12,073 nt of DNA from positions 1 to 12,073 of IMG/VR virus record IMGVR_UViG_3300045988_125741; one strand, written 5' to 3'. Origin of the DNA: a virus. Made by a program: the position numbers and the translations under genes. Numbering within the stretch: the stretch's first letter is position 1; each line of letters begins with the position of its first letter. The notes under the pieces were generated by a model. That model saw only the letters and a program-made list of their open reading frames with translations, did no database searches and was not told the origin of the DNA. Positions 1 to 12,073 of this stretch are shown in pieces.

Positions 1-286
1 GGTACAGTAAATATTTCCATGGAAATCGAGTAAATAAATCCCAATTCCTAGCCACTTCCTGCCAATTCCCAACACTTACAATAATATTCCAGCAATGCCA
101 ATCACTACCATTTCATTTCCATCCAACTACCAATTTATAACAATTACAATAACTTACACATATTCCAGTAGCTTACAATTTGATGTAATTTATTGTAATT
201 GACTGAATTTTACAATTACCACTCTTTCCCATATACAAAGAGTATACTGGCATATTATATAATTATATTTGTGCAAGTTGACTATT
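1..286. repeat. Left inverted terminal repeat (ITR)
   Basis: I compared 1..286 block by block with the reverse complement of 11788..12073 and found no mismatch. Identity ends at 287 (g versus a in the right-end copy). Confidence 0.97.
13..26. repeat. 14-bp perfect palindrome ATTTCCATGGAAAT near the genome end (mirrored at 12048..12061)
   Basis: Self-complementary by inspection. It is flanked by direct AGTAAATA repeats at 6..13 and 29..36. Confidence 0.9.
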
Positions 287-313
287 GACTTTTTGAAAAT
301 TTTCATTTATAAT
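285..313 (+). promoter_or_regulatory. SigmaA/sigma70-type promoter of the rightward (virion/lysis) operon
   Basis: TTGACT (285..290), a 17-nt spacer, then TATAAT (308..313). A second TTGACT lies 7 nt upstream (278..283) inside the ITR. The first gene starts at 347. Confidence 0.75.
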
Positions 314-346
314 GCAAGTAGAAAATAAAAGAAAGGTATGTAATTT

Positions 347-508
347 ATGGATGCTATTATGACAGCGGTTTCTACAGTAGGTTTTCCAATTGCAATTTCC
401 TGCTATTTGCTGTACACACAAACTAAATATATGCAGGCTATCAAATCCGCCCTGGAAAACAACACCAAAGCAATTACAGATTTGGCTGAAAAATTGGAAA
501 AGAGTTGA
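347..508 (+). CDS. Small single-pass membrane protein, YvrJ-like; holin candidate (53 aa, not in the ORF track)
   Basis: ATG at 347 lies 10 nt after GAAAGG (331..336), and the stop TGA is at 506..508. The translation is MDAIMTAVSTVGFPIAISCYLLYTQTKYMQAIKSALENNTKAITDLAEKLEKS. It has one hydrophobic helix with the GFPIA..YLL signature I associate with the YvrJ family, followed by an amphipathic tail. It is the first gene of the late operon. Confidence 0.6.
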   Translation: MDAIMTAVSTVGFPIAISCYLLYTQTKYMQAIKSALENNTKAITDLAEKLEKS

Positions 509-514
509 TAATTA

Positions 515-1492
515 ATGTTGTTCAGACCGTTTGACTACTGGCGTGGCGGTGTTTTTTCCTATAATGATTATGACCCCAAGGCAAAAGGCATTCGTGACAA
601 GCCCCGGAATTTTGAAACACACATGTCGGAATTTTTCAATACTACTGCCATTATGTTTCAATGGGATACTAGGGAATTAGAAATTCCAATTTTTAGGTTG
701 GAACAGTATTTACAGTGCTATGGTTGGGCTGCTGTAATTACCAAGAACGGCAAAAAGCTAGTTGTATCTGGAAATTGTGCCGGATGGCTGGGCGAATGGA
801 CAGAGTATTACATGCCAGCCGGAATTATAGTAACAAACCCATACGCACAAGAATTTAACGGACAGTATTATTTTTCAGATGATAATTGCATTCTTATTCG
901 CAATGATTCCGAATTTTTAGGGTTATATCCAATGTTTGCAAGGGCGTGTGAAATGTTGGTTGAAAATGATATTACAATTCTGAATGCATTGGAAAATTTG
1001 CGAATTATGAATATTTACTATGCAGAAGATTCCAATACAGCGAATGCATTTACTCAAATGCAAAAAAATCTGAAATGGGGCAAGTTGTCAACAGTTTTAC
1101 AGACTGTAAAATCATGGATGAACGGCGAGACAAAACCGTTAGGCGTTTTGCCTGTAAATGGAGTATGCACTACATATATGCAACAGTTAATTGAAATTGC
1201 AACATATATTAAGGGGCAGTTATACAATTCAATTGGGCTACAATCTAATTGGAATATGAAACGGCAATCATTATCAGAAAATGAAATCGGCGCTAATGAT
1301 GATATTTTAAAACCGTTAGTACAAAATATGTTATTGTGTAGACAGGATGCCGCAAAAAAATTGGGATGGACTGTAAAACTTAATGACATATGGGAACATA
1401 TAGAAGAAAAGGGTGTGGCTAATGAATCTGTTGAAACTGTATCCGACAATGACCGGGATATTTACGAAAATGCCGGGGATTCCATGGAGTGA
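515..1492 (+). CDS. Portal (connector / upper collar) protein, phi29 gp10-like
   Basis: 325 aa, compared with about 309 aa for gp10. Several blocks are collinear with remembered gp10 segments. [28 protein letters not shown] resembles [58 protein letters not shown] resembles [42 protein letters not shown] resembles KKERMVTDEVSSNDE. The C-terminal tail is acidic. Confidence 0.85.
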   Translation: [325 protein letters not shown]

Positions 1493-2051
1493 CAGCCTGA
1501 ATATTACAGCAGAACAGGCAGACAACTCCTTTTTTGTCCAGTGGGGTGCAATTTGTCCTTCATGGTATCTTTTGCAAAAAGTTTCCAGCAATGGTATTAT
1601 TGAAGATTCTGTAAAAACACAAATAGCAAATGCAATTTATTCAATGTATTCTAACGAGTGGAAAAAACTTTCAAAAGTTTTTTCGTTAAACTATGAAATT
1701 CTGAATAGTGCTAACGAAAAAACTATTACAGAAATTGCAGATAATGAGCAATTCAGACATGGACATTCAGTGAATACTACAAGTAGCGGAAATTCCAGTT
1801 TGTGGGGGTTTAACTCATCATCTGGAATTCCAAGCGATTCAGATAGTAATGAATCAAATACTACTAATTCCGGGGTTGATACCAACACCAGGGATAATGT
1901 TCGCATCACCACTAGAACAGGGCAAACGATTCCGGCTCAAGATTTAATTTCCAAAGAGTGGGAAGTCTGGAAGAAAAACTATTTTGCAATTGTTTACAAT
2001 GATATATTAAAGGTGATTGCATCGCCTATTTATGAAATGGAGGAAATTTGA
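1422..2051 (+). CDS. Virion-module protein of unknown function (candidate lower collar/head-tail adaptor or scaffold)
   Basis: The ORF is open from 1413 (GTG). I prefer the ATG at 1422, which lies 8-9 nt after AAAGGG (1408..1413). That start gives a 71-nt overlap with the portal ORF; 1449 and 1470 are alternative ATGs. The middle of the protein is Ser/Asn/Thr-rich (SSGNSS..SSSGIPSDSDSNESNTTNSG). The stop TGA at 2049..2051 lies just before the capsid start. Function is inferred from position only. Confidence 0.6.
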   Translation: MNLLKLYPTMTGIFTKMPGIPWSDSLNITAEQADNSFFVQWGAICPSWYLLQKVSSNGIIEDSVKTQIANAIYSMYSNEWKKLSKVFSLNYEILNSANEKTITEIADNEQFRHGHSVNTTSSGNSSLWGFNSSSGIPSDSDSNESNTTNSGVDTNTRDNVRITTRTGQTIPAQDLISKEWEVWKKNYFAIVYNDILKVIASPIYEMEEI

Positions 2052-2052
2052 A

Positions 2053-3357
2053 ATGAAAGTAAAACAGGTAGCCACACTTCTAAATACTGTATACAATGAA
2101 ATTATTGGCGAATCCGCTCTTGTAAAAGAGGATTTGTCAAATATTGTAGACGTTGGCAGAGAAATCACCAGTTCTACCCAGTGGGGTGATAATTTCGACA
2201 AGTTTGTGGGAAAGTTAATTGACCAGGTGGGCAGAGTAATTTTTGTTGACAGAACATATCAGCCGGACGATTTGGGGCTGCTCCGGGATTCCTGGACATA
2301 TGGCAGTATTTTGCAGAAAGTTCGCTGTGATGTAGGTGACTACGTTGACAATAAAGCATGGCAGTTGGCAGATACACAGAAACCGGATTTTTCCGATTTG
2401 TTTGATTTTGACAGTGCACCCACTGTAATGGCAAAATATTTCAATATGAAAACCACATTCAGAGAAAAGATTTGCATTACACGGGAACAGGCAGAATCTG
2501 CATTCCGTTCGGCAGAGGACATGAACCGATTTATTTCTATGATTGAAAACCGAATTCAGATGAAAATGAATTTGGCAACAGAAGCATTGGCGTACCGAAC
2601 CGAAGCAAATTTGATTGCTGAAAAGCTGTGGAGTGGTAACAATGTTGTAAATCTTTTGCATGATTACCACGTAGAAACAAGCGACAATTCAGTAACTGCC
2701 GATAATTGGAAAACAAAGCCCGATTTTCTACGATTTGTTTCCAATAAGCTGCAGATGTACAAAAAGCTGATTGCAAAAGCATCCATGCTGTTCAATGATG
2801 CCGGATATACCACATTCACGCCCCCGGAAAAATTGAGAATGTACGCACTTACAGATTTTGCTAGCGCAATGCGCACACATCTCTATGGCAACACATACCA
2901 TACCGAATTTGTGGAGGTTGACGGATATCATGAAGTGCCCTATTGGCAAGGAATGGGTACAAATGCAAAATATTCCGATAGGTCTATGCTGAACGTAATT
3001 CCGGCGTCGCAAGTAGGAAATGCCACAGCACAGATTGTACAGGATGGAATTATTTTTGTGATGCAGGACGATGAAGCGGCTCTTATTTGTTGTGAACAGA
3101 ATCCAGTTGACAGTCTTTACAACCCAGAGGGACGTTTTTACAAGTATTTCTATTCTGCTGATGCAAGTTATTACAATGACCTTGCAGAAAATGTAATTGT
3201 ATTTACGGTATCAGAATATTATTACGTTCCCTTGACTGTTCAGCCTGCTGATTGGACAACCGATTATGCGAATTACTATGTTCTTACAAATGGAGCATAT
3301 GTACAGAATTCCTCGGATACATTCGATGCAAACACCAGATATTACAAAAAGGCATAG
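2053..3357 (+). CDS. Major capsid protein (phi29 gp8-like size and position)
   Basis: The track ORF starts at 2017, but the ATG at 2053 (MKVKQV...) has GGAGG (2039..2043) 9 nt upstream and follows the previous stop. At 434 aa it is close to the 448 aa of gp8. It is followed immediately by a hairpin terminator/attenuator, as is common after capsid genes. Similarity to gp8 is only loose (FVGKLIDQVGRVIF versus FITSLVDRIGLVVI). Confidence 0.7.
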   Translation: MKVKQVATLLNTVYNEIIGESALVKEDLSNIVDVGREITSSTQWGDNFDKFVGKLIDQVGRVIFVDRTYQPDDLGLLRDSWTYGSILQKVRCDVGDYVDNKAWQLADTQKPDFSDLFDFDSAPTVMAKYFNMKTTFREKICITREQAESAFRSAEDMNRFISMIENRIQMKMNLATEALAYRTEANLIAEKLWSGNNVVNLLHDYHVETSDNSVTADNWKTKPDFLRFVSNKLQMYKKLIAKASMLFNDAGYTTFTPPEKLRMYALTDFASAMRTHLYGNTYHTEFVEVDGYHEVPYWQGMGTNAKYSDRSMLNVIPASQVGNATAQIVQDGIIFVMQDDEAALICCEQNPVDSLYNPEGRFYKYFYSADASYYNDLAENVIVFTVSEYYYVPLTVQPADWTTDYANYYVLTNGAYVQNSSDTFDANTRYYKKA

Positions 3358-3362
3358 TAGAA

Positions 3363-3390
3363 AATAGGCGGATAATCCGCCTATTTCCTT
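3363..3390 (+). terminator. Hairpin terminator/attenuator after the capsid gene
   Basis: AATAGGCGGA (3363..3372), loop TAA, TCCGCCTATT (3376..3385), then TTCCTT. The stem is 10 bp but the U-tract is only moderate, so it is probably leaky because downstream late genes must still be expressed. Confidence 0.5.
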
Positions 3391-3402
3391 ATGGAGGTAA
3401 AT

Positions 3403-3834
3403 ATGAACATTAAACTTTTATCATATTCACAACCTAAAAACAGTGTTAAGAAATCCTATACCACATGGGCAAATTTAACAGGTTCAATGCGTGATACACT
3501 AAATATTGTAAACCCTGTATTTTTAGTTCAAGCAACAGAGCAATATGACAAGGCTAACGCTGTTTATTGTGAAGAGTTGGATAGATACTATTTTATCACA
3601 GGGAAAGAGTGGGTAAGAACCGGACTTTTGGCAATTTCATGTCATGTTGATGTATTAGTGACATATCAGGGAGACATCTGGAACAATTCCGGCATTATAT
3701 CAAGAAATTCAAATCTATTTAATGGATATTTGCCCGACAATAAACAAAAGATTTTTCAATATGACAAGACACAAATTAAAGTATTTCCAAGGGAAATCCT
3801 AGTTGATACCAATATTTTGATTACTGTGGGGTGA
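3403..3834 (+). CDS. Tail protein resembling the N-terminal domain of the phi29 gp9 tail knob
   Basis: ATG at 3403 lies 5 nt after GGAGG (3393..3397); the track start at 3391 sits on the SD. The product is 143 aa. The pattern NAVYCEELDRYYFITGKEW..LLAISCHVDVLVTY matches the remembered gp9 N-terminal pattern ASYIMFQNADYGNKWFYAFVTEL..VHFEIDVLQTW. Confidence 0.6.
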   Translation: MNIKLLSYSQPKNSVKKSYTTWANLTGSMRDTLNIVNPVFLVQATEQYDKANAVYCEELDRYYFITGKEWVRTGLLAISCHVDVLVTYQGDIWNNSGIISRNSNLFNGYLPDNKQKIFQYDKTQIKVFPREILVDTNILITVG

Positions 3835-3838
3835 CTAT

Positions 3839-5440
3839 ATGAATATCATACGATTAGGAATTTTTGACGAAACAGGCGTAAAATTTGTAAAAAAGGTAGA
3901 TGCAGGTTTTTTTAATCCTAACGGTGCTCTTGCATCTGCTCTTTTATTGAAGCCGCTTGTAAATACCCAGATAGATGCTATAGAATATTCAACCGTTCTT
4001 GTAAATCATATAGGACATATGGAAAATATAAATGACACTTTTTCGGGCGGTAGTAATATTTCTGATTTATTTAATGATAATTCCAATAAAATTTTTGTTA
4101 TGAAAAATGAAAAGGAAAAGACAGAAAATTTTTTGCAAGTTATAACAACGGAGACACAATATTCAGGGATTACATATTTTATTGGTGATAATAGGATTAA
4201 TCAAGAAGCTACACTAACATTGCCTGTTGCTAATAGTATAATAAAAATGTGTTACTATTACAGAATTGTTAATAATGTTTTAAAAGAGTTTATTGGTTGG
4301 TTATATCTAGCACCTACTGGGCAAATAGACACATCAGGCCTGCCAACATATAGAATATCTGGGGTTCTTGTTGATTTAAATTTTTGGGAAAAAGGCAAAG
4401 TGCCCCCATTTGGAGACCCCACACCGGGGGGTGCAATTGGAGGATATGGTACATATGACGATACAAGCGACAATTTCCCAATTCCGCCCAATAGATTGAA
4501 TGATGTATATGGTAGCATTTTATCAAACCAAAACGGAAAAATACAAATGTATACGCTTGATTCTGGTGCGTATGGGGCTTTCCTTGGCAAAATTTACACA
4601 AATGATTTTTGGCAATATTGGAAAAATACAATGTTTAATCCTCTGGAGGGCATATACAGTTGCATCCGTGTTCCATTTAGTGAACTTGAACTAACACGGT
4701 CTGCCGTTGCTAAAATTAATGTATCAAATACAGAACTTGAAATTTTGGCAGGCGCGTACAAAGTTACAAATAATTACGTTAAAGACCAATTAATTACCTC
4801 CAATTATGTAATTGATGAATATTTTGGTAGTTTTCTTGATTATTCCCCGTACACTACATGCGAATTATATATCCCTTTTTATGGAACAGTAAACATAGAT
4901 ATAAACGAAATTATGGGTGGAAATATTTCCATCACTAGAAGAAATAACTATGTAAATGGGGATTTTGTGGTGTTCGTTCAATGTGTGAATAGATTTGGGA
5001 TTGCTGTCACGCATGCATATGCTGGAAATGCCGCTATCACATTACCAATTACAGCCGGAAATGACGGTTCCCCTAACAGAATACTTGACCTGGTTCAGGG
5101 TGTAGCCAATTTAGCAATGGGAAATTATGTTGGTGCTGGGACATCAGCGGTAAATGCTTTGACAGAAAAAGGAAATACTTCAACGGTTCAAAAATTATCA
5201 GGAGGATCCGGATGGAATGCAAGTCACGATTTTGCATTAATTTTCCGGCGTTCATGCCCCAGCAATCCAGAAAATTACACCAAGGAAAACGGCAGACAAG
5301 CAGACGAATTTGTAAATTTTTCAGATTTACAAGGATATACAGAAGTATCTGCTGTAGATTTGAAATTTACATCTGGTAAAATTACATCGGCAGAAATTGA
5401 CGAAATTAACAATTTATTGAAACAGGGGGTATTTTTCTAA
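3839..5440 (+). CDS. Tail protein; C-terminal half resembles the C-terminal part of the phi29 gp9 tail knob
   Basis: 533 aa. SPYTTCELYIPFYGTVNIDINEI resembles gp9 [23 protein letters not shown]. A Gly/Ala-rich segment (VQGVANLAMGNYVGAGTSAVNAL) resembles GMIGGGISAGASAAGGSALGM. The C-terminal GKITSAEIDEINNLLKQGVFF resembles GDINNNDLQEIRTIFDNGITLW. The N-terminal ~300 aa are not recognisable. The ATG at 3839 lies 4 nt after the stop of the preceding ORF. Confidence 0.6.
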   Translation: MNIIRLGIFDETGVKFVKKVDAGFFNPNGALASALLLKPLVNTQIDAIEYSTVLVNHIGHMENINDTFSGGSNISDLFNDNSNKIFVMKNEKEKTENFLQVITTETQYSGITYFIGDNRINQEATLTLPVANSIIKMCYYYRIVNNVLKEFIGWLYLAPTGQIDTSGLPTYRISGVLVDLNFWEKGKVPPFGDPTPGGAIGGYGTYDDTSDNFPIPPNRLNDVYGSILSNQNGKIQMYTLDSGAYGAFLGKIYTNDFWQYWKNTMFNPLEGIYSCIRVPFSELELTRSAVAKINVSNTELEILAGAYKVTNNYVKDQLITSNYVIDEYFGSFLDYSPYTTCELYIPFYGTVNIDINEIMGGNISITRRNNYVNGDFVVFVQCVNRFGIAVTHAYAGNAAITLPITAGNDGSPNRILDLVQGVANLAMGNYVGAGTSAVNALTEKGNTSTVQKLSGGSGWNASHDFALIFRRSCPSNPENYTKENGRQADEFVNFSDLQGYTEVSAVDLKFTSGKITSAEIDEINNLLKQGVFF

Positions 5441-6120
5441 TGTTTAAAGAGCGAACAAGTAAACCAGAAAAAGGAAACAAGTACTACACCACAAAAGACT
5501 GCGGGGGCTGGAGCCCGTGCATCAAGGGCAAACCTACTGATACCGATTGTAATGTACTGTCAAATTGTGTCGGGTATGCTGTAGGCAGATTCAATGAGAT
5601 ACATAACCGGAATTCATGCGACCTGTTGGGTAGTAGGAATGCAGGCCTATTGACAGAATTTTGTAAAACACAAGGGCTGATGCTAGATTCTTACATGCCC
5701 CATGTGGGTGCTGTAATGGTTTGGCAAAAAAAGAATGGTGCAGGTCATTGTGCCATAGTAGAAAAAGTTGTAAATGAACATACTGTAATTACCAGTGAAA
5801 GCGGGTACAATTCAAGAATACCATGGTGGCGGAAAGAACGGTGCCGTGGTTCTGGTAGATGGGGGTGTGGTTCTGCCTACACTTTCATAGGATTTATTTA
5901 CAAGGAGGAAATAAAAAATATGGTAAAAATGGGTTCAGTTGGTGCAGATGTCACGAAAATACAGGTGCGTTTAAGAGCATTGGGGTATTTTGATAGTCTG
6001 TGTGATGGTCACTTTGGCAAAAAGACCCTTGGTGCAGTTCTTTCTTTCCAGAAATTGAACGGGCTTGCAGTAGATGGTATTGTGGGGATTAAAACCCTTA
6101 CAGCATTAGGACTAAAATAA
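5440..6120 (+). CDS. Endolysin: CHAP/NlpC-P60-type cysteine peptidoglycan hydrolase + C-terminal PG_binding_1 domain
   Basis: The start overlaps the upstream stop (TAATG), and GGGGG lies about 9 nt upstream. The candidate catalytic Cys is in SNCVGYAVGRF and the candidate His in GAGHCAIVEKV. The C-terminus GADVTKIQVRLRALGYF..GHFGKKTLGAVLSFQKLNGLAVDGIVGIKTLTAL is a textbook PG_binding_1 repeat. Confidence 0.85.
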   Translation: MFKERTSKPEKGNKYYTTKDCGGWSPCIKGKPTDTDCNVLSNCVGYAVGRFNEIHNRNSCDLLGSRNAGLLTEFCKTQGLMLDSYMPHVGAVMVWQKKNGAGHCAIVEKVVNEHTVITSESGYNSRIPWWRKERCRGSGRWGCGSAYTFIGFIYKEEIKNMVKMGSVGADVTKIQVRLRALGYFDSLCDGHFGKKTLGAVLSFQKLNGLAVDGIVGIKTLTALGLK

Positions 6121-6124
6121 AAAT

Positions 6125-6154
6125 AGCCGGGATTTACTCCCGGCTGTTTTTTTT
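6125..6154. terminator. Bidirectional rho-independent terminator between the convergent operons
   Basis: AGCCGGGA (6125..6132), loop TTTAC, TCCCGGCT (6138..6145). It is followed by G+T8 on the + strand and preceded by AAAATAAAAAT, which reads as a U-rich tail on the - strand. Confidence 0.85.
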
Positions 6155-7316
6155 AATCATTTTTTACAGGCATCCCACACCACATTAAATAATTGCGCAA
6201 TGTTTCACCAGTCATATTGTCGGAATAGTATAAATTATCCTTTTTGAAAATTTCTACTATTTTTCTTTGTACTGGTAAAAATGGCTGATTGATTCTCTTA
6301 AACCAGTTGGGTTTGGCAATTGGTTTATCGCTGTATATCAGGTCGTTGTCAATATCTTTCAATGGCGATGTTTTCGGATTTATGTCAATAAATGTCATTC
6401 CGTCAATATATACCACATTGCATTGCAATACTTCTTCATCAAATACTATAAAAAACCGGAACTTTACATCACTGGAATAATAAGTATATGGACAAGTTGG
6501 ATATGTGGAGGTTTCAAAGTCGCCGGATGTAATCATTTTTGCATGCGGATTATCAAACTGAAAATATTCGTTTGATGCTTTTTCTTCAACAGGGCTGTCC
6601 GCCCACAAAGCGGAAATAAAAGGCTTTTCTTTGTTGTTTTTGTAAATTGTGATTTTTCCTTTTTCTTGCTTTGTGATGTGTTTCATTCCCATATTACGGA
6701 AATATGGGCAACTGGTAGATACTGTATTTCCAAGGAGGAAAATTTTTGCAAAATTATTCAATCGTACAAGCGTTGAAATAGCGTTCAAAAATAGTGCAAA
6801 TTCTCCTGGAACATATCCTATTCTGGAAATAAATTCATCAAATACAACAAGGCCTATATTTTCTGGATACACACCGCCTTTGTCGTGTTCCATATCCGTT
6901 AGTGCGAAACCATAACAGAACGGGTCATTTTCATGCTCTATTTCACCCTTTGAATTTTCGTACGCAAGATAAAACATTTTAGATTTATACAATACTCTGT
7001 CATATTGCCCACCTGTTAATTTAGATATAATTCCTCTGTTTGTCAATCCGCCGAAAAATTGGGACGCCGTTTTTACGGTGAAGTCTGTTTTCCATCTCCT
7101 AATGATTGACATTTTTTCACCGTATAATACATATCTTAACAGTCCCGTGGTAAACATGCCGTAACTTTTGCCGTTTGACCGTTCTCCCCACGCCAAATTA
7201 TACAACGTATCGCATTTCAATTGGGGGATGGGGTTATAAAAACCCTTATCCCCAATTAATTCCTGTAGCATTTTCAAAAATTCTTTTTCTTGGAAACGTT
7301 TTTCTTGTTTAATCAA
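6153..7316 (-). CDS. DNA packaging (encapsidation) ATPase, phi29 gp16-like
   Basis: The Walker A segment WGERSNGKSYGM resembles gp16 GARGIGKSYAM. It is followed by GEKMSIIRRWKTDF, which resembles GEQFIYVRRYKPEL. The Walker B segment LVVFDEFISR resembles TIVFDEFIRE, and FLLGNTVSTSCPYF resembles CLSNAVSVVNPYF. The start codon is TTG at 7316, 8 nt after a strong AGGAGG (rc of 7325..7330) embedded in the 3' end of the pol gene. The first in-frame ATG (7271) lacks an SD. Confidence 0.9.
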   Translation of the reverse strand: MIKQEKRFQEKEFLKMLQELIGDKGFYNPIPQLKCDTLYNLAWGERSNGKSYGMFTTGLLRYVLYGEKMSIIRRWKTDFTVKTASQFFGGLTNRGIISKLTGGQYDRVLYKSKMFYLAYENSKGEIEHENDPFCYGFALTDMEHDKGGVYPENIGLVVFDEFISRIGYVPGEFALFLNAISTLVRLNNFAKIFLLGNTVSTSCPYFRNMGMKHITKQEKGKITIYKNNKEKPFISALWADSPVEEKASNEYFQFDNPHAKMITSGDFETSTYPTCPYTYYSSDVKFRFFIVFDEEVLQCNVVYIDGMTFIDINPKTSPLKDIDNDLIYSDKPIAKPNWFKRINQPFLPVQRKIVEIFKKDNLYYSDNMTGETLRNYLMWCGMPVKND

Positions 7317-9498
7317 TTGTAATCCCTCCTATTTTATAAAGAAAATCTATGAAATTTTCTGCAAGGTTCATATTGTAGAATCCATTTTCTAGGTGAACGC
7401 TGGATAATTCACAATACTTTCCTGCATTACCTGTATAGTCGGTTACATATCCGGTTTGCGATTCATCCAAATATGTATGGGTCAATTTCCCACATTCACC
7501 AACAGGAAATATCAATTTATTAGTAAAATGTATAATTGCTTTCCTGCCGTATTTTTTTTTCAAATATTCAGCACCTGCTTTTTTCCCAACCCCGGCACAT
7601 GTCAAAATAATTTTATAACGTTTATCACCTATTGTCTTAAAATTATTAAACTGGTCAATTGCTTTCTTTACATATGCTTTTTTCAAATAATTTGTACTTT
7701 CTTTTTTTTCAACCCTCGCACATGCAAACTTAAAATTAACTTTATTTTCCGTAATGTATCGCTTTGCGCCTAATGTTTTGAACCTGTCATAAACGCCCTC
7801 AAAATCCCAAACGCCTATTAAATGTTTTTTTCCTTTTATGTCAATGGGTTCAAAGTCTTCAAAATCAAATTTATACCATTCACATACTTTTTTTATCAAA
7901 TCAATGCAACGTGCATTGTACTTTTCAATATAATCCATATGCTTTTCATAATTTGTAATTTTTATACTATCAGTATCGCTGTACTTGTAATCATTTCCAC
8001 AAGCTAAAATTCCAGTCCATAAATTTCTTCTGGCGTGCGCTGTAACGTAAACACCCCAGGGGTAATATAAAAATCTTCCATACTGATTATTATACGATTT
8101 GATTGCTTTTTCAATATCTGGAAATTCTGGCTCTTCCCAGTCATCGCTATACTTGTTTTCCTCTCTGATAATATTTGTAACCGCCATTCCGTATAGACTA
8201 TTCAACATACCTTTTGCTTTCAAATATTCTTCTTCTTTACCAATAATTCCTTTTAATTCCGTTTTTTTCTTATACAGTTCAAGTATAATTTCCATAAATT
8301 CTTTTGGTAGATACCCCCTATTGTATATGTAAAAATCTGAAAACTGAACACTGTCAAAAGTGTACGTCTTACAAATAATGTCAAAATCAATTTCAGTGAT
8401 GCAAACAGTAGCTTGTGGTGCGCTGTATATTCTACCATTATTCAGGATAGTATCATCTGTAATTTTTTCTTCTATTTTACTGAACGATAGATAATTATCA
8501 GACATACCTTGTCTCGCTCTTAAATTGTTAAATCTACATCTAAAAATACAACAATATTCTTTTAGATACTCTTTTGCTTGTTCTAGACTTTCAATTTTTA
8601 CCTTAACACCCTTTGACATTGGGAAATATTGTGTGAGCATTACGAACGGATAACTACTTGTGAAGTCAAAACTTGCCACGTTTTCATATATTTTGCCAAT
8701 TGCCCTAAAAGATGCATGTGTAAATCCGCCTATAAATGCTCTGCGGACGATAGCATATTCTTTCGGTTCAAGTGTAAGACTTCTTATTTTTTTCAAATAT
8801 TTCTTATTCTTTGTTAGAATTTCCTTGCAATGACGCCGCACAAACCCTGTTGCTGTCATAGGTATTTTCGTGATGCTACCCTCTTTTTCCATTAACTCCC
8901 ATATATAAGCCACTACGATACGCACATCATTCACCATGTACGGCAATTCAGATGTTTTTATTTCGGTTTCAGAATGTCTTATTTTGGAATAATCTAAATC
9001 ACCCACCAATTTTTGTATTTTGTGTTGTGTTAAATTTTCTGCTACTTTTTCCAAACTCAACCCAGACAAAATATAACTACATTTAAATTGAATGCCATCC
9101 GTAGTCAATGCTGTTAATGGGGTTCTTCTTTTGATGGCAAATACTTTTTTCCATTCAAACCACTTTCGCATAAACTGGAATTCAAATGATAAATTATGCA
9201 CATAGATTGTCAAAATACGCTTGCTTGAAATTTTGAATATTCTTTGCAATATTTGTAATACGTCAAAAAAATCTTTCCATGTTCTTCCTATTATTGTATT
9301 TTCCTTTATTTGCAACTGCCAAATATACATAATTGCAGTTTTTTCATTGTTCTTATTGTAAAAACTGGATGTCTCGATATCAAAACTACATGGCAATTCA
9401 ATATATTCTATGTGTTTTTTTTCGGTGCATTCATACTGTGGTATTGGCATTTTATGTAGTGTATGTATGGTATATACTACATCCGAAAATTTCAACAT
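7309..9498 (-). CDS. Family-B DNA polymerase, protein-primed type (phi29 gp2-like)
   Basis: Motifs present: ExoI FDIETSS, ExoII VHNLSFEFQF, ExoIII YMVNDVRIV, YxGG-like AFIGGFT, motif A DFTSSYPFV, motif B KGMLNSLYGM, motif C YSDTDSI and KxY KTLGAKRY (plus a second copy, KTIGDKRY). The track start at 9513 is TTG. The ATG at 9498 (MLKFSD...) lies 7 nt after GAGGTGG and is preferred, giving 729 aa. Confidence 0.95.
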   Translation of the reverse strand: MLKFSDVVYTIHTLHKMPIPQYECTEKKHIEYIELPCSFDIETSSFYNKNNEKTAIMYIWQLQIKENTIIGRTWKDFFDVLQILQRIFKISSKRILTIYVHNLSFEFQFMRKWFEWKKVFAIKRRTPLTALTTDGIQFKCSYILSGLSLEKVAENLTQHKIQKLVGDLDYSKIRHSETEIKTSELPYMVNDVRIVVAYIWELMEKEGSITKIPMTATGFVRRHCKEILTKNKKYLKKIRSLTLEPKEYAIVRRAFIGGFTHASFRAIGKIYENVASFDFTSSYPFVMLTQYFPMSKGVKVKIESLEQAKEYLKEYCCIFRCRFNNLRARQGMSDNYLSFSKIEEKITDDTILNNGRIYSAPQATVCITEIDFDIICKTYTFDSVQFSDFYIYNRGYLPKEFMEIILELYKKKTELKGIIGKEEEYLKAKGMLNSLYGMAVTNIIREENKYSDDWEEPEFPDIEKAIKSYNNQYGRFLYYPWGVYVTAHARRNLWTGILACGNDYKYSDTDSIKITNYEKHMDYIEKYNARCIDLIKKVCEWYKFDFEDFEPIDIKGKKHLIGVWDFEGVYDRFKTLGAKRYITENKVNFKFACARVEKKESTNYLKKAYVKKAIDQFNNFKTIGDKRYKIILTCAGVGKKAGAEYLKKKYGRKAIIHFTNKLIFPVGECGKLTHTYLDESQTGYVTDYTGNAGKYCELSSVHLENGFYNMNLAENFIDFLYKIGGITID
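7519..7782 (-). repeat. Tandem in-frame duplication inside the polymerase gene (KxY motif plus start of thumb)
   Basis: Copy 1 (7642..7782) is FKTLGAKRYITENKVNFKFACARVEKKESTNYLKKAYVKKAIDQFNN. Copy 2 (7519..7641) is FKTIGDKRYKIILTCAGVGKKAGAEYLKKKYGRKAIIHFTN. Similarity is also visible at DNA level (AATTGCTTTC, TTTTTTCAAATA and GCACATG occur in both). Confidence 0.8.
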
Positions 9499-9509
9499 AA
9501 AATACCACC

Positions 9510-10058
9510 TCAATCAAACCACTCAAAAGGATTTGAAAAACTTTCTGCCATTTTTCTTTCTTCTTCCTCTGCTTCAAAACGTTTTTTTACAAAAGCCATT
9601 TCAACCATATTATATAATTCTTCTACTGTTTTAACCCGATGTAATGACATTGTTCGTTGAACAATTTTCACCGCTTCTTTGTAGGGCAAAACATCGTAGT
9701 ATTCTGATTTATAATAAATATCATATAGTACTTTTTTCAATAATGCGTCGTCAATTGCATTGAATTGCTTTCTGCCTTTGTAACCACCTAAAATTTGCTT
9801 TTCCTTTTGTTTCTGGTTTTTCTTTAGTGCTTGTTGTAATTTCTTCTCTTCCCTGTCTTTTTTTCGTAACTCTGATGCATATTTGTCTTTCTTTACTTGT
9901 TTTGCTAATTGCCGTATTTGCTGTTGCGCTTTCCTCTTTTCTTTTGCCTGTTGTTTCCTTATTTGTCGTTTCTTTTCTTTTACTGATAGTTTATCGGCAG
10001 TAGCACCCCTCTTGGGGGGTGCTTTCCTGGTGCTGTTTTTCTTTTTTGGTTTAGCCAT
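9510..10058 (-). CDS. Putative terminal protein (priming protein); extremely basic N-terminal half
   Basis: 182 aa, immediately upstream of pol as in phi29 (gene 3 then gene 2). Its stop TGA (9512..9510) lies inside the pol SD. The start ATG at 10058 overlaps the upstream stop (ATGGCTAA). The N-terminal ~97 aa are K/R/Q/E-rich (MAKPKKKNSTRKAPPKRG...KEKRKAQQQIRQLAKQVKKDK...). The C-terminal half is Tyr-rich (LYDIYYKSEYYDVLPYK) with an acidic tail. I recognise no sequence signature; the call rests on synteny and composition. Confidence 0.5.
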   Translation of the reverse strand: MAKPKKKNSTRKAPPKRGATADKLSVKEKKRQIRKQQAKEKRKAQQQIRQLAKQVKKDKYASELRKKDREEKKLQQALKKNQKQKEKQILGGYKGRKQFNAIDDALLKKVLYDIYYKSEYYDVLPYKEAVKIVQRTMSLHRVKTVEELYNMVEMAFVKKRFEAEEEERKMAESFSNPFEWFD

Positions 10059-10293
10059 CGTCTTTCTTCCTCATAAATTCCATATACGTGAAATTCAGTC
10101 CCTCAATAATTCGGACTACCTTATATCCGAAAAACTTGCAAAGTTTTACAAAATCGTTTTGTGTTGGGTAAAGTCCTAAATCCTGGTATTTTCTGATGCA
10201 TAAATAATTAGCCGCTTGGACGGAATCAGTTGTCAAAAACACTTGGAAACGTTTGCCATCACTGTGCCCAACTGCTATATATTGCTTGCTCAT
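10051..10293 (-). CDS. Hypothetical early protein (80 aa)
   Basis: The track start at 10314 is TTG and lies inside a hairpin. The ATG at 10293 (MSKQYIAVGH...) follows AAGGAGG with a 4-nt spacer. It occupies the position of phi29 gene 4, but I see no similarity. Confidence 0.65.
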   Translation of the reverse strand: MSKQYIAVGHSDGKRFQVFLTTDSVQAANYLCIRKYQDLGLYPTQNDFVKLCKFFGYKVVRIIEGLNFTYMEFMRKKDDG

Positions 10294-10305
10294 AAAACCT
10301 CCTTT

Positions 10306-10322
10306 CCGGGGCAAAGCCCCGG
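10306..10322 (-). promoter_or_regulatory. GC-rich stem-loop between the SSB-like gene and the next gene
   Basis: CCGGGGC-AAA-GCCCCGG on the + strand, a 7-bp stem. On the mRNA it sits 7 nt after the upstream stop and directly abuts the AAAGGAGG SD of the next gene. There is no U-tract. Confidence 0.6.
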
Positions 10323-10329
10323 AATAATT

Positions 10330-10746
10330 TTACTTTTCAATTACTGCCTGCAACGTCAAGAATGATACATCCGCTGATTTGTTCACCTGTTTAATACGGA
10401 ATTTTCTGGGATGTTCCCATGTATCCGGCATGCCGAACGCCTGAACAATATTACGCAATGCATTGAACACCCCGACAGATGTGCATGCATACCCGTTGCC
10501 CTTGCTGTCAATTAATGTAACATGCGGTGCGTTCGTCACCTCGCCTGTTTCTTTGTTTGTTACCTCAACCATAGAAATAGCAAAATGTGCTAGTTCAATT
10601 TCCTGGTTTATACAGTCCTTAATTCTGAATTCTGGTGCGGTGGTTGCGTTGTACACAATTGCTTTGTTTTCCTCTGTTACAACAGGCATTGTGCAGAAAC
10701 TTCCTACTTCTTCCATGTTCTTGATTGTCAATGCAAATTTTTCCAT
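10330..10746 (-). CDS. Single-stranded DNA-binding protein candidate (phi29 p5-like)
   Basis: 138 aa, with ATG at 10746. The C-terminal two thirds line up with remembered phi29 p5. VTLIDSKGNGYACTSVGVFNALRNIVQAF resembles TTIFAADGSLYSAISKTVAEAASDLIDLV, and FRIKQVNKSADVSFLTLQAV resembles FKVKVVQGTSSKGNVFFSLQL. Its position upstream of TP/pol is consistent. Confidence 0.55.
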   Translation of the reverse strand: MEKFALTIKNMEEVGSFCTMPVVTEENKAIVYNATTAPEFRIKDCINQEIELAHFAISMVEVTNKETGEVTNAPHVTLIDSKGNGYACTSVGVFNALRNIVQAFGMPDTWEHPRKFRIKQVNKSADVSFLTLQAVIEK

Positions 10747-10865
10747 ATTTTTCTTTCTGCCCCTGTCACCCTGGGGCGCAAGGTATTTGCGAAAATGTGG
10801 GTGTATGTATATTGATGTTTATTTTAATTTGTGGGGTTGCGACCACAATTCCGCATTACCCCGGC
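10747..10865 (-). other. 119-nt structured intergenic region inside the early operon (hairpins; possible terminator, internal promoter or leader RNA)
   Basis: Stems on the + strand: GCCCC/GGGGC (10759..10763 with 10773..10777), CGCAA/TTGCG (10777..10781 with 10787..10791), TTGTGG/CCACAA (10829..10834 with 10843..10848) and CCCGGC/GCCGGG (10860..10865 with 10870..10875). The last stem encloses the upstream stop codon in its loop. A weak - strand promoter candidate, TTGTGG-16-TAAAAT, is present. Confidence 0.5.
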
Positions 10866-11117
10866 TTATGCCGGGTCGCTCTGCGCATTAAAATAACCGT
10901 CTGGCATCTGCCTAATTTCTCCGTTTTCGACTATGTAGTCACCTACATGAACCAAATACATGATATTCATAGTCTCATACACACATTCATGCAACACAAA
11001 CCCTCCGGGATGTTTTTCCAGTTTCCACCACTTACACCAATGGCGAAATGGATATTGACACGGTTTTTCATATTCTGCTAAAATCTTTTTAGCGAAAACG
11101 GTAGAAATGTTTTTCAT
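10866..11117 (-). CDS. Hypothetical early protein (83 aa), Cys/His/Trp-rich
   Basis: The track start at 11126 is TTG. The ATG at 11117 lies 9 nt after GAAAGGGG. The sequence CQYPFRHWCKWWKLEKHPGGFVLHEC could be a metal-binding site. It overlaps the upstream gene by 29 nt. Confidence 0.6.
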   Translation of the reverse strand: MKNISTVFAKKILAEYEKPCQYPFRHWCKWWKLEKHPGGFVLHECVYETMNIMYLVHVGDYIVENGEIRQMPDGYFNAQSDPA

Positions 11118-11406
11118 TAGGTTCAACCCCTTTCAAATAATAATCCATGCCGCCTGTATGTGTAACAATATACCCATCACCGTATTTGCCTGAATACGGA
11201 TATACCCCAAATGGCATGCCTGGAAATTTGCGCTTGTACCGGGCTGCCCTGTGGTGGAATCCACATTTTTCCATTGCCATAAATGAACACAGTACGTCGT
11301 TGAAATCGACATCATCGGGGTTCTTTGTCTCACCAACTATCATTGCCGCCTGGAATAAAACATCGTGAATGTCGTGCACATTTACAAAACTTAACTCTTT
11401 GAACAT
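11089..11406 (-). CDS. Hypothetical early protein (105 aa)
   Basis: The track ORF extends to 11463 and overlaps the previous gene. The ATG at 11406 (MFKELSF...) follows AAGGA, which overlaps the upstream stop (TGAAAGGA), with an 8-nt spacer. I recognise no family. Confidence 0.6.
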   Translation of the reverse strand: MFKELSFVNVHDIHDVLFQAAMIVGETKNPDDVDFNDVLCSFMAMEKCGFHHRAARYKRKFPGMPFGVYPYSGKYGDGYIVTHTGGMDYYLKGVEPNEKHFYRFR

Positions 11407-11419
11407 AAACAACATCCTT

Positions 11420-11662
11420 TCAATTAAATGCAATTTTTCTAGTTGCATTCGGCAATTTGTCATGACATCTACTTGTACTTACTGCCATTAACTCGCTCTT
11501 ATCCCAATGTTTGCCATATGTCACGAATTTACCTGAACTGGTGTAAATTCTAACATGTTTACCGCCTGTTACTTTTAGCCATTTCCGTGCGTTCCGGTGA
11601 CCAACACCCCGAATAATGTTAAATACGTTTACACCATCGTCGTAAATTACCACATATTTCAT
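11420..11662 (-). CDS. Hypothetical first early protein (80 aa), basic
   Basis: ATG at 11662 lies 5 nt after AAGGAGG. It is the first ORF downstream of the right-end promoter. I recognise no family. Confidence 0.7.
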   Translation of the reverse strand: MKYVVIYDDGVNVFNIIRGVGHRNARKWLKVTGGKHVRIYTSSGKFVTYGKHWDKSELMAVSTSRCHDKLPNATRKIAFN

Positions 11663-11709
11663 ATTTTCCTCCTTGCCTTTCGGCTGTTCTTTTCTTATCT
11701 TCTGTTTAT

Positions 11710-11738
11710 ATTATAACACGAAAATTCTCGATTGTCAA
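11710..11738 (-). promoter_or_regulatory. SigmaA/sigma70-type promoter of the leftward (early/replication) operon
   Basis: On the - strand: TTGACA (rc of 11733..11738), a 17-nt spacer ending in TGT, then TATAAT (rc of 11710..11715). This is a consensus -35/-10 with a TG-extended -10. Upstream is an A/T-tract region (AAAAAATTTTGAGAAAATTTCAAAAAGG) that resembles an UP element. Confidence 0.8.
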
Positions 11739-11787
11739 TACCTTTTTGAAATTTTCTCAAAATTTTTTGATTTTACTAAAATTCATT

Positions 11788-12073
11788 AATAGTCAACTTG
11801 CACAAATATAATTATATAATATGCCAGTATACTCTTTGTATATGGGAAAGAGTGGTAATTGTAAAATTCAGTCAATTACAATAAATTACATCAAATTGTA
11901 AGCTACTGGAATATGTGTAAGTTATTGTAATTGTTATAAATTGGTAGTTGGATGGAAATGAAATGGTAGTGATTGGCATTGCTGGAATATTATTGTAAGT
12001 GTTGGGAATTGGCAGGAAGTGGCTAGGAATTGGGATTTATTTACTCGATTTCCATGGAAATATTTACTGTACC
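11788..12073. repeat. Right inverted terminal repeat (ITR)
   Basis: Exact reverse complement of 1..286. Each position p in the left copy maps to 12074-p. Confidence 0.97.

Follow-up and report, generated by a model that had tools for sequence, protein, structure and literature searches.

Phages related to phi29 have been catalogued on a large scale: Evseev et al. 2024 placed 2115 genomes in 30 clusters of the major capsid protein (MCP), and described clusters with genomes of 11-14 kb that have a split tail knob, CHAP lysins and no fibres (PMC11476376). Here, we analyse a viral DNA of 12,073 nt, positions 1 to 12,073 of the IMG/VR record IMGVR_UViG_3300045988_125741 (henceforth the window, i.e., the whole stretch at its full length). 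It has an overall GC content of 36% and is very probably the near-complete linear double-stranded DNA genome of a phi29-like podophage that is virulent and stems from a gut community. An earlier note on this DNA had described it as a strongly reduced lineage of the phi29-like group, which is borne out by the protein families, the polymerase motifs, the length of 12 kb and the 15 genes (g01 to g15).

The best cultured matches to the window are the Astrithrvirus-like phages (amino acid identities of 39-43% in the polymerase, 38-39% in the packaging ATPase, 34-37% in the MCP and 30% in the portal). These phages are likewise small (10.4-11.9 kb) and have long inverted terminal repeats (ITRs). They share with the window an open reading frame (ORF) in the position of the terminal protein (TP), a protein-primed family-B DNA polymerase (pPolB), a gp16-type ATPase, a portal, a conserved protein of ~190 amino acids (aa), a Phi29-type MCP, a tail knob split into a small gene (~145 aa) and a large one, and a lysin. 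Their genomes are mostly collinear, whereas in the window the block of replication and packaging genes is inverted and the operons converge. Their TP-position protein is not homologous to g10 of the window, and the window lineage, unlike theirs, has a p5-like single-stranded DNA-binding protein (SSB) recognisable by Pfam, a YvrJ-like holin, a lysin with CHAP and PG_binding_1 domains, and a twister ribozyme. Their hosts are Gammaproteobacteria, whereas the signals in the window point to Bacillota.

Phi29 itself (Salasmaviridae) has in common with the window the set of pPolB motifs, the p5-like SSB, the gp16-type ATPase, the gp10-type portal, the Phi29-type MCP, the gp9-type tail knob and the placement of early and late operons on opposite strands. 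It differs in size, with 19.3 kb and ITRs of 6 nt against 12 kb and ITRs of 286 nt in the window. It also differs in content, since the window has no recognisable packaging RNA (pRNA), p6, p4, gp12 appendages, gp8.5 head fibres, gp13 or gp7, and its knob is encoded by two genes. After the Astrithrvirus-like phages, the next-best matches are Clostridium phage HM2, the 12.3-kb Amedibacillus phages and gut contigs named 'Bacteriophage sp.'. The Amedibacillus phages AD70P2 and AD70P3, filed under Guelinviridae, are cultured, phi29-like and have a gut Bacillota host; they are 36% identical to the window in the polymerase and 28% in the MCP, and their tail protein aligns with the C-terminal part of g06. 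They differ from the window by a single fused knob gene, a collinear gene order, a GC content of 27% and a TP-position protein of the common family, which the window lacks. Uncultured phi29-related phages of the gut (MCP clusters of PMC11476376, uncultivated viral genomes of IMG/VR and metagenome-assembled genomes (MAGs) named 'Podoviridae sp. ct...') are in the same size class of 11-14 kb, with ITRs of 50-417 nt, the core genes and, often, the convergent layout.

Place of the window among small phi29-related phages

Megablast comparison with 50,697 phage records gave no nucleotide match to the window. Its nearest relative is another IMG/VR genome, IMGVR_UViG_3300045988_112988 (L005/L070), with 93% nucleotide identity, and five further contigs are 82-91% identical. 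Outside its own genus, identity is at most 72% in the MCP and ~44-48% in the polymerase. In metagenomes, 4940 relatives of the MCP (g04) were found at E<=1e-10; their contigs typically measure 11-14 kb. Because there is no nucleotide match to deposited phages and the proteins are 30-43% identical to those of classified ones, it is fair to regard the window as an unclassified genus, which lies within a large and described assemblage of 11-14 kb phi29-related phages. The window falls outside Astrithrvirus, whose genus criterion is a nucleotide identity of ~70% or more across the genome with the type species. With its 12,073 nt, it shows the features given for MCP cluster 23 (split tail knob, small genome, no fibre genes; PMC11476376).

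The suggestion of the earlier note that this may be an undescribed group at the level of genus or family is fair for the genus; the wider group has been described, and a 93%-identical genome was present in IMG/VR. Its statement that tailed phages hardly ever have genomes of ~12 kb, for which it names Mycoplasma phage P1 as the customary example, is outdated, given the 10.4-11.9 kb Astrithrvirus-like isolates, the 12.3-kb Amedibacillus phages, the thousands of 11-14 kb metagenomic relatives and the review in PMC11476376.

Genome ends and inverted terminal repeats

The window is bounded by a perfect inverted repeat. Inverted-repeat comparison gives two arms of 286 nt, the left ITR at 1-286 and the right ITR at 11788-12073, that are 100% complementary; the left one is the presumed replication origin. 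In the contig L005, the ITR is likewise perfect and 286 nt long, and the sequence begins 3 nt inward from the end of the window; the contig L120 (82% nucleotide identity) terminates in exactly the same register as the window. Independent assemblies of relatives at 82-93% nucleotide identity thus stop at the same nucleotide, within 3 nt, which argues that the ends of the window are real. The ITRs of L005 and of the window are 87% identical, yet the arms are identical within each genome, and we conclude from this that the arms evolve in concert. Perfect terminal repeats are frequent in the group: they measure 40-417 nt in 56 related contigs, and the isolate DU_PP_III has an annotated terminal repeat of 219 bp. 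Those of 55, 77, 99, 119, 127 and 141 nt have the k-mer sizes of assemblers and are probably truncated versions of longer ITRs.

The sequences at the very ends of relatives indicate what the complete terminus may look like. A remnant of the Illumina adapter (...GATCT) directly adjoins AAAGGTAC or AAAGTCCCCC in L106 (positions 1-13), L107 (1-13) and L071 (1-16). L091 (1-10) is likewise among the contigs that begin with the adapter tail GATCT before AAAGGTAC or AAAGTCCCCC, and L008 (1-8) begins directly with AAAGGTAC. Since the adapter remnants abut the contig ends, these are physical DNA ends in those relatives. The conserved terminal motif of the relatives is 5'-AAAG(G)TAC and the ends of phi29 read AAAGTA. 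The first letters of the window are GGTACAG, and on this comparison of sequences it probably lacks ~3 terminal nt (AAA) at each end. A reiterated AAA end would match the need of the sliding-back initiation known from phi29. The earlier claim that the window is a complete genome from ITR to ITR is therefore upheld by the 286-nt repeat and by the matching ends of independent assemblies, with ~3 nt probably missing at each end.

The ITRs contain iteron-like units at 59-84 and 127-152, with a spacing of 68, and repeats of the CCACTTCCTGCCAATTCCCA type whose copy number differs among relatives. The heptamer TTACAAT occurs five times in each arm, so that 10 of its 17 copies in the window are found within 4.7% of the sequence. 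Possibly, a replication or nucleoid protein binds to these copies and to the iteron-like units. None of the relatives was found integrated in a host genome: all 57 matches in 185,579 species genomes are on contigs of at most 14.8 kb. We thus rejected the hypothesis of a prophage or other integrated element, given that no relative lies in a contig longer than 14.8 kb.

Two convergent operons for replication, packaging and the virion

The 15 ORFs form two convergent blocks and cover 91.6% of the window, or 96.2% of the sequence between the ITRs, in agreement with the earlier description of some 15 genes with hardly any gaps. Near 6.1 kb, at the switch of the coding strand, the sign of the GC skew is reversed. 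The left operon, which carries the structural and lysis genes, is preceded by a promoter-like site just inside the ITR (TTGACT-17-TATAAT; 285-313, plus strand) that has 11 of 12 consensus positions and is conserved in relatives. The predicted promoter of the right operon, with the early, replication and packaging genes, matches the consensus at 12 of 12 positions and has an extended -10 element (TTGACA-17-(TG)TATAAT; 11710-11738, minus strand). Between the two operons lies a predicted bidirectional intrinsic terminator hairpin (6125-6145), made of an A-run, AGCCGGGA-TTTAC-TCCCGGCT and a T-run. GGAGG-type Shine-Dalgarno sites precede most genes, and no tRNA genes were found in the window. TGA is the stop codon of six ORFs; the genetic code is therefore the standard one, and code 4 was rejected, as in the earlier note.

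The polymerase g09 (729 aa; 7309-9498, minus strand) matches the Pfam family DNA_pol_B_2 (PF03175, E 4e-17) and the DNA polymerases of PHROG 1907 (E 1.6e-73). Its alignment with phi29 gp2, at ~26% identity, places ExoI (FDIET), ExoII (HNLSFE), ExoIII (YMVND), a YxGG-like FIGG, and the motifs A (DFTSSYP), B (KGMLNSLYG), C (YSDTDS) and KxY (KRY). The full set that the earlier note had attributed to this protein is thus present, and there are inserts where phi29 has TPR1 and TPR2. Comparison with relatives sets the start codon at the ATG at 9498; a start at the TTG at 9513 was rejected. An in-frame tandem duplication of 123 nt (41 aa) at 7519-7738 (minus strand; 97 nt at 72% identity, spacing 123) doubles the region of the KxY motif (FKTLGAKRY... 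and FKTIGDKRY...); divergence has affected the inner halves of both copies. The window and L005 carry this duplication, L119-L123 do not. We also observed that the ExoII motif (9199-9225, minus strand) has a glutamate at the position of the catalytic D66 of phi29, a substitution found in all four mini-phage polymerases aligned with the window (L119, L120, astrithr and AD70P2).

The SSB, g12 (138 aa; 10330-10746, minus strand), was assigned to the phi29 p5-like family as previously proposed: it scores 33.2 bits against Phi29_Phage_SSB (PF17427; gathering cut-off of 25 bits, E 7e-8) and matches PHROG 6243 (E 8e-18). The TP position is occupied by an ORF in 89 related loci (median of 202 aa, median isoelectric point (pI) of 9.3), and in 71 of the 82 loci outside the genus of the window this ORF belongs to a single protein family. 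In the window, the ORF adjoining the polymerase start is g10 (182 aa, pI 10; 9510-10058, minus strand). Its comparison by hhalign with phi29 gp3 and with the common TP-position family revealed no homology (probabilities of 0.3% and 4.0%), and the hidden Markov model of that family had no match in the six reading frames of the window. g10 is an orphan: among 1.84e9 representative proteins, phmmer found only two relatives, which belong to its own genus. The C-terminus of g10, ESFSNPFEWFD, hardly varies across that genus; four of the six relatives have S or R where the window has N. Judged by its position, size and charge, g10 is the most likely candidate for the terminal protein. The earlier claim of a terminal protein is thus accurate in its basic ORF abutting the polymerase, but homology does not confirm the identity of the protein.

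The packaging and capsid genes are more readily recognised. The gp16-type DNA packaging ATPase g08 (387 aa; 6153-7316, minus strand) matches Podovirus_Gp16 (PF05894, E 7.5e-14) and PHROG 2150 (E 1.4e-21). The portal, or upper collar connector, g02 (325 aa; 515-1492, plus strand) matches PHROG 2038 (E 3.4e-15) and is 30% identical to the connector of Astrithr/DU_PP_III. The MCP g04 (434 aa; 2053-3357, plus strand) has the Phi29-type HK97 fold (Phi29_MCP PF25622, E 2.3e-42). Together with the lysin described below, these assignments agree with the earlier inventory of ATPase, portal, capsid and lysin. The C-terminus of g04 (3220-3357) is a Tyr-rich extension of ~45 aa common to the closest relatives only; the MCPs of other members of the clade end at ~389 aa or carry an Ig-like (Big_2) domain. 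Between portal and MCP, g03 (193 aa; 1470-2051, plus strand) is a conserved protein of the virion module; its family has members at 104 loci, among them Astrithr gp07 and Phanie gp7. It had no match to phi29 gp7 and gp11 by hhalign, nor in a profile search of PDB sequences, and its AlphaFold2 (AF2) model reached a predicted local distance difference test score (pLDDT) of 36 with input homologues that were all at least 78% identical. By elimination, using PMC11476376, it is probably the small lower collar protein; a scaffold role is also possible. Pfam and PHROG searches of the 15 ORFs gave no matches to gp12 appendages, gp8.5 head fibres, p6 or p4.

The tail knob reported by the earlier note is present, but it is encoded by two genes. 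The first, g05 (143 aa; 3403-3834, plus strand), is the N-terminal (tube) part of the knob: the two best PDB matches of its family profile are the knob of phage C1 (4EO2, E 0.012) and phi29 gp9 (5FB4, E 0.024). The g05 family is found in 102 related loci, including Phanie gp9, and the g05-like and g06-like parts are fused in a single ORF in Amedibacillus AD70P2 and in contig L004. The second, g06 (533 aa; 3839-5440, plus strand), is the major, C-terminal part. In its AF2 model (pLDDT 70), an N-terminal beta domain predicted with confidence (aa 1-180) is joined by a Gly/Pro linker to a C-terminal body, in which a Gly/Ala-rich loop (aa 403-460) has low confidence. A Foldseek search of the PDB with this model returned phi29 gp9 as the top four matches, all weak (E 6e-3 to 2e-2), and the matches in BFVD included a protein of 568 aa from Salmonella phage Astrid (E 1.3e-9) as well as several proteins of gut 'Podoviridae sp.'. 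The individual matches are weak but concordant, and g05 and g06 form a gp9-type tail knob. In relatives that match the C-terminal part of g06 at 92-95% identity, the N-terminal domain (aa 1-185; 3839-4393) matches at just 22-24%, which indicates that this domain has been exchanged independently. It is probably a specificity module, predicted to act as a receptor-binding or adaptor domain.

The lysis genes lie at the two edges of the left operon. The 53-aa g01 (347-508, plus strand) is a YvrJ-like small membrane protein that matches the holins of PHROG 4898 (E 3.6e-9), with a Pfam YvrJ score of 27.7 bits, slightly below the cut-off. The 226-aa g07 (5440-6120, plus strand), whose start overlaps the stop of g06, is a peptidoglycan hydrolase with the Pfam domains CHAP and PG_binding_1, and acts as endolysin and/or tail-associated lysin. 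The holin was missing from the earlier inventory, as was a ribozyme in the early operon.

This ribozyme is a predicted self-cleaving Twister-P5 in the early transcript (10831-10885, minus strand; Rfam RF02684, 55.8 bits against a gathering threshold of 37.6). The match to the Rfam family is full-length, and the element is found here inside a polycistronic early operon. It shares sequence with the end of g13 (the final six codons and the TAA stop), and the start codon of the SSB follows 85 nt downstream of it. Pairing is kept in all helices and in both pseudoknots, with 98.8% of pair cells paired, and the region folds better than shuffled sequences (z -3.3). One pseudoknot pair changes from C-G to U-A, i.e., in a compensatory way, although with only five distinct sequences covariation is thin. 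The ribozyme is conserved in five of the six genus-level relatives; the exception is L121, in which we found no other ribozyme. It is absent from the 42 more distant genomes of the group that were scanned. Twister ribozymes cleave at a U-A step (PMC6154101), and the predicted cut site in the window would be the U-A step at 10858/10857, 8 nt past the g13 stop. Twister and hammerhead ribozymes are known to be associated with genes of phages (PMC4604425); for phi29-like phages, a shallow search of the literature yielded no account of a twister.

The surroundings of the ribozyme have further structure. The 85-nt leader from the ribozyme to the SSB start (10747-10830, minus strand) is highly conserved and includes hairpins CGCAA..TTGCG and CCCC..GGGG, parts of it being kept even in L121; it may control translation as an operator, or else confer stability. 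A GC-rich hairpin at 10304-10324 (TTCCGGGGC-TTT-GCCCCGGAA) directly follows the SSB stop, and its 3' arm abuts the AGGAGG Shine-Dalgarno of g11; with no clean T-run after it, it may be an attenuator or a stabiliser of the mRNA. The remaining early proteins are g11 (80 aa; 10051-10293, minus strand) and g13 (83 aa; 10866-11117, minus strand), both without a family match, and two variable ones. These are g14 (up to 124 aa; 11089-11463, minus strand), an ORF with 50% identity in L005, and g15 (80 aa; 11420-11662, minus strand), the first early gene, which has a GGAGG Shine-Dalgarno and 44% identity in L005. The g14/g15 region (11227-11644), next to the right end, is the most variable part of the genome, with extra or different small ORFs in L005, L119 and L123.

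Taken together, these components suggest how the phage may work. Judging from the family, a phage protein, most likely g10, would prime the polymerase g09 at both ends, with the 286-nt ITRs acting as origins and the SSB g12 coating the displaced strand. The two sigma-70-type promoters just inside the ITRs would drive the convergent operons, which share one terminator. The right operon, from g15 to g08, would express the small early proteins, the SSB, g10, the polymerase and the packaging ATPase, and the ribozyme would cut its mRNA just after the g13 stop, upstream of the SSB gene. The left operon, from g01 to g07, would provide the holin, the portal, g03, the capsid protein, the two-piece tail knob and the CHAP lysin. 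The gp16-type ATPase would then move protein-capped DNA of unit length through the portal to fill a small capsid of the Phi29 type, and the exchangeable N-terminal domain of g06 would be the likely determinant of specificity at entry.

Host, autonomy and alternative readings

Going by the signals in its sequence, the host of the window is probably a member of the Bacillota, which makes the low-GC Gram-positive host proposed by the earlier note plausible. The Shine-Dalgarno sites of the GGAGG type, the sigma-70-type promoters, the YvrJ-like holin and the domain order of the lysin (catalytic domain at the N-terminus, binding domain at the C-terminus) all lean this way. The nearest cultured relatives infect Gammaproteobacteria, contrary to this assignment, and the PG_binding_1 domain of g07, with matches in phage lysins from Gram-negative hosts as well as from Bacillus, is uninformative. 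The more distant relatives L013-L069 (11-14 kb) were binned in MAGs labelled as an archaeon, Methanobrevibacter, Bacteroidales, Treponema, Elusimicrobia, Clostridia and others. Such bins are taxonomically inconsistent and evidently wrong, so that we do not take the labels as evidence on the host. A Bacteroidales host was rejected, given the GGAGG Shine-Dalgarno before most genes and the promoters of the TTGACA/TATAAT type.

Several observations weigh against reading the window as the genome of a phi29-like phage with the biology outlined above. The terminal protein is not identified by homology, and g03, the sole candidate for a gp11-type lower collar, has neither a profile nor a fold match. 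A search of Rfam (E<=1) found no pRNA, and the ITRs fold no better than shuffled sequences (z -1.5 and -1.0); a divergent pRNA may still exist. The ribozyme of the window has an A.C mismatch in its second pseudoknot (nt 10849/10835), where relatives have A-U. The lysin homologues and the MAG bins of relatives point to no one host. Finally, Pfam and PHROG scans of the ORFs recognised no scaffold protein, tail fibre or appendage gene, so that the self-sufficiency which the earlier note ascribed to the gene set may not extend to the virion.

This last point matters for one alternative, namely that the window is a helper-dependent satellite podophage, with its own replication and capsids, whose particles would have to dock onto the tail of an unrelated helper to gain infectivity, the N-terminal domain of g06 being the adaptor to that tail. 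It is compatible with the rest of our explanation and differs from it on autonomy only. As relayed in PMC11476376, Acinetobacter phage Phanie is reported to need the tail of a helper myophage, and the trait may be wider. Phanie belongs to the Astrithr-like group, i.e., to the closest cultured relatives of the window, and shows the same order of virion genes (portal, small conserved protein, MCP, small and large knob genes, CHAP lysin). Moreover, the large tail-knob protein of Astrid is homologous to g06 in structure, no genes for fibres, spikes or appendages were detected with Pfam and PHROG, and some names of records (Vibrio phage K58 'g2', the multi-contig S.Ent 1-35-3) suggest co-isolation. 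However, the identity to Phanie is just 37-41% in the MCP and polymerase, the large knob protein of Phanie has 854 aa with different extra domains against 533 aa in the window, and the shuffling of the g06 N-terminus is equally typical of a domain binding a host receptor. Astrid is described as a non-satellite in a preprint (10.1101/2025.06.18.659913), and no helper is known for the window lineage. We regard helper dependence as unlikely. A more specific scenario, in which the gut lineage hijacks tails as Phanie does, in Gram-positive anaerobes, with the g06 N-terminal domain as adaptor to different helper tails and the lineage-specific twister as a built-in switch releasing the SSB and replication genes by cutting the early mRNA, is more doubtful still.

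The other alternatives question whether the window is a phage genome from end to end, and we consider both very improbable. Assemblers of metagenomes can make terminal palindromes, and the k-mer-sized repeats of several relatives could suggest that the 286-nt ITR is a fold-back or chimeric artefact, or that the full genome is larger or circular and the contig just a piece of it. Yet, 286 is not a k-mer size, and the repeats that have such sizes are better read as truncated true ITRs. The ITR of L005, which has the same length and is internally perfect yet 13% diverged from that of the window, speaks against an artefact, as do the common register of L120, the annotated repeat of the isolate DU_PP_III, and a gene set that is syntenic and complete relative to isolates. 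The window could also be thought a non-viral, plasmid-like protein-primed element, either a linear plasmid or a phage-plasmid such as the Enterococcus pBE-type, since ITRs and pPolB also occur in linear plasmids and some phi29-related sequences are annotated as plasmids (PMC11476376). Against this, a module for virion and lysis is present in full (portal, MCP, tail knob, packaging ATPase, holin and lysin), Pfam and PHROG scans found no partition, toxin-antitoxin, repressor or integrase genes, and its 12 kb are far below the ~29-35 kb of phage-plasmids.

The reading of the window as a near-complete genome of a small phi29-like podophage does not overturn the current understanding of these phages, among which it is not a rare outlier. 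It provides a well-delimited genome, from end to end, for an unclassified genus that is among the smallest known tailed phages and has at least six sequenced relatives. Long ITRs that evolve in concert and the terminal motif AAAG(G)TAC emerge as general features of the group. Within this frame, the early operon of a protein-primed phage contains a conserved, predicted self-cleaving ribozyme, the TP-position protein has been either replaced or has diverged beyond recognition, and the polymerase tolerates a 41-aa duplication that spans a motif of the catalytic site. The swappable specificity domain of the tail knob, in turn, bears on whether such mini-phages are autonomous or depend on helpers.

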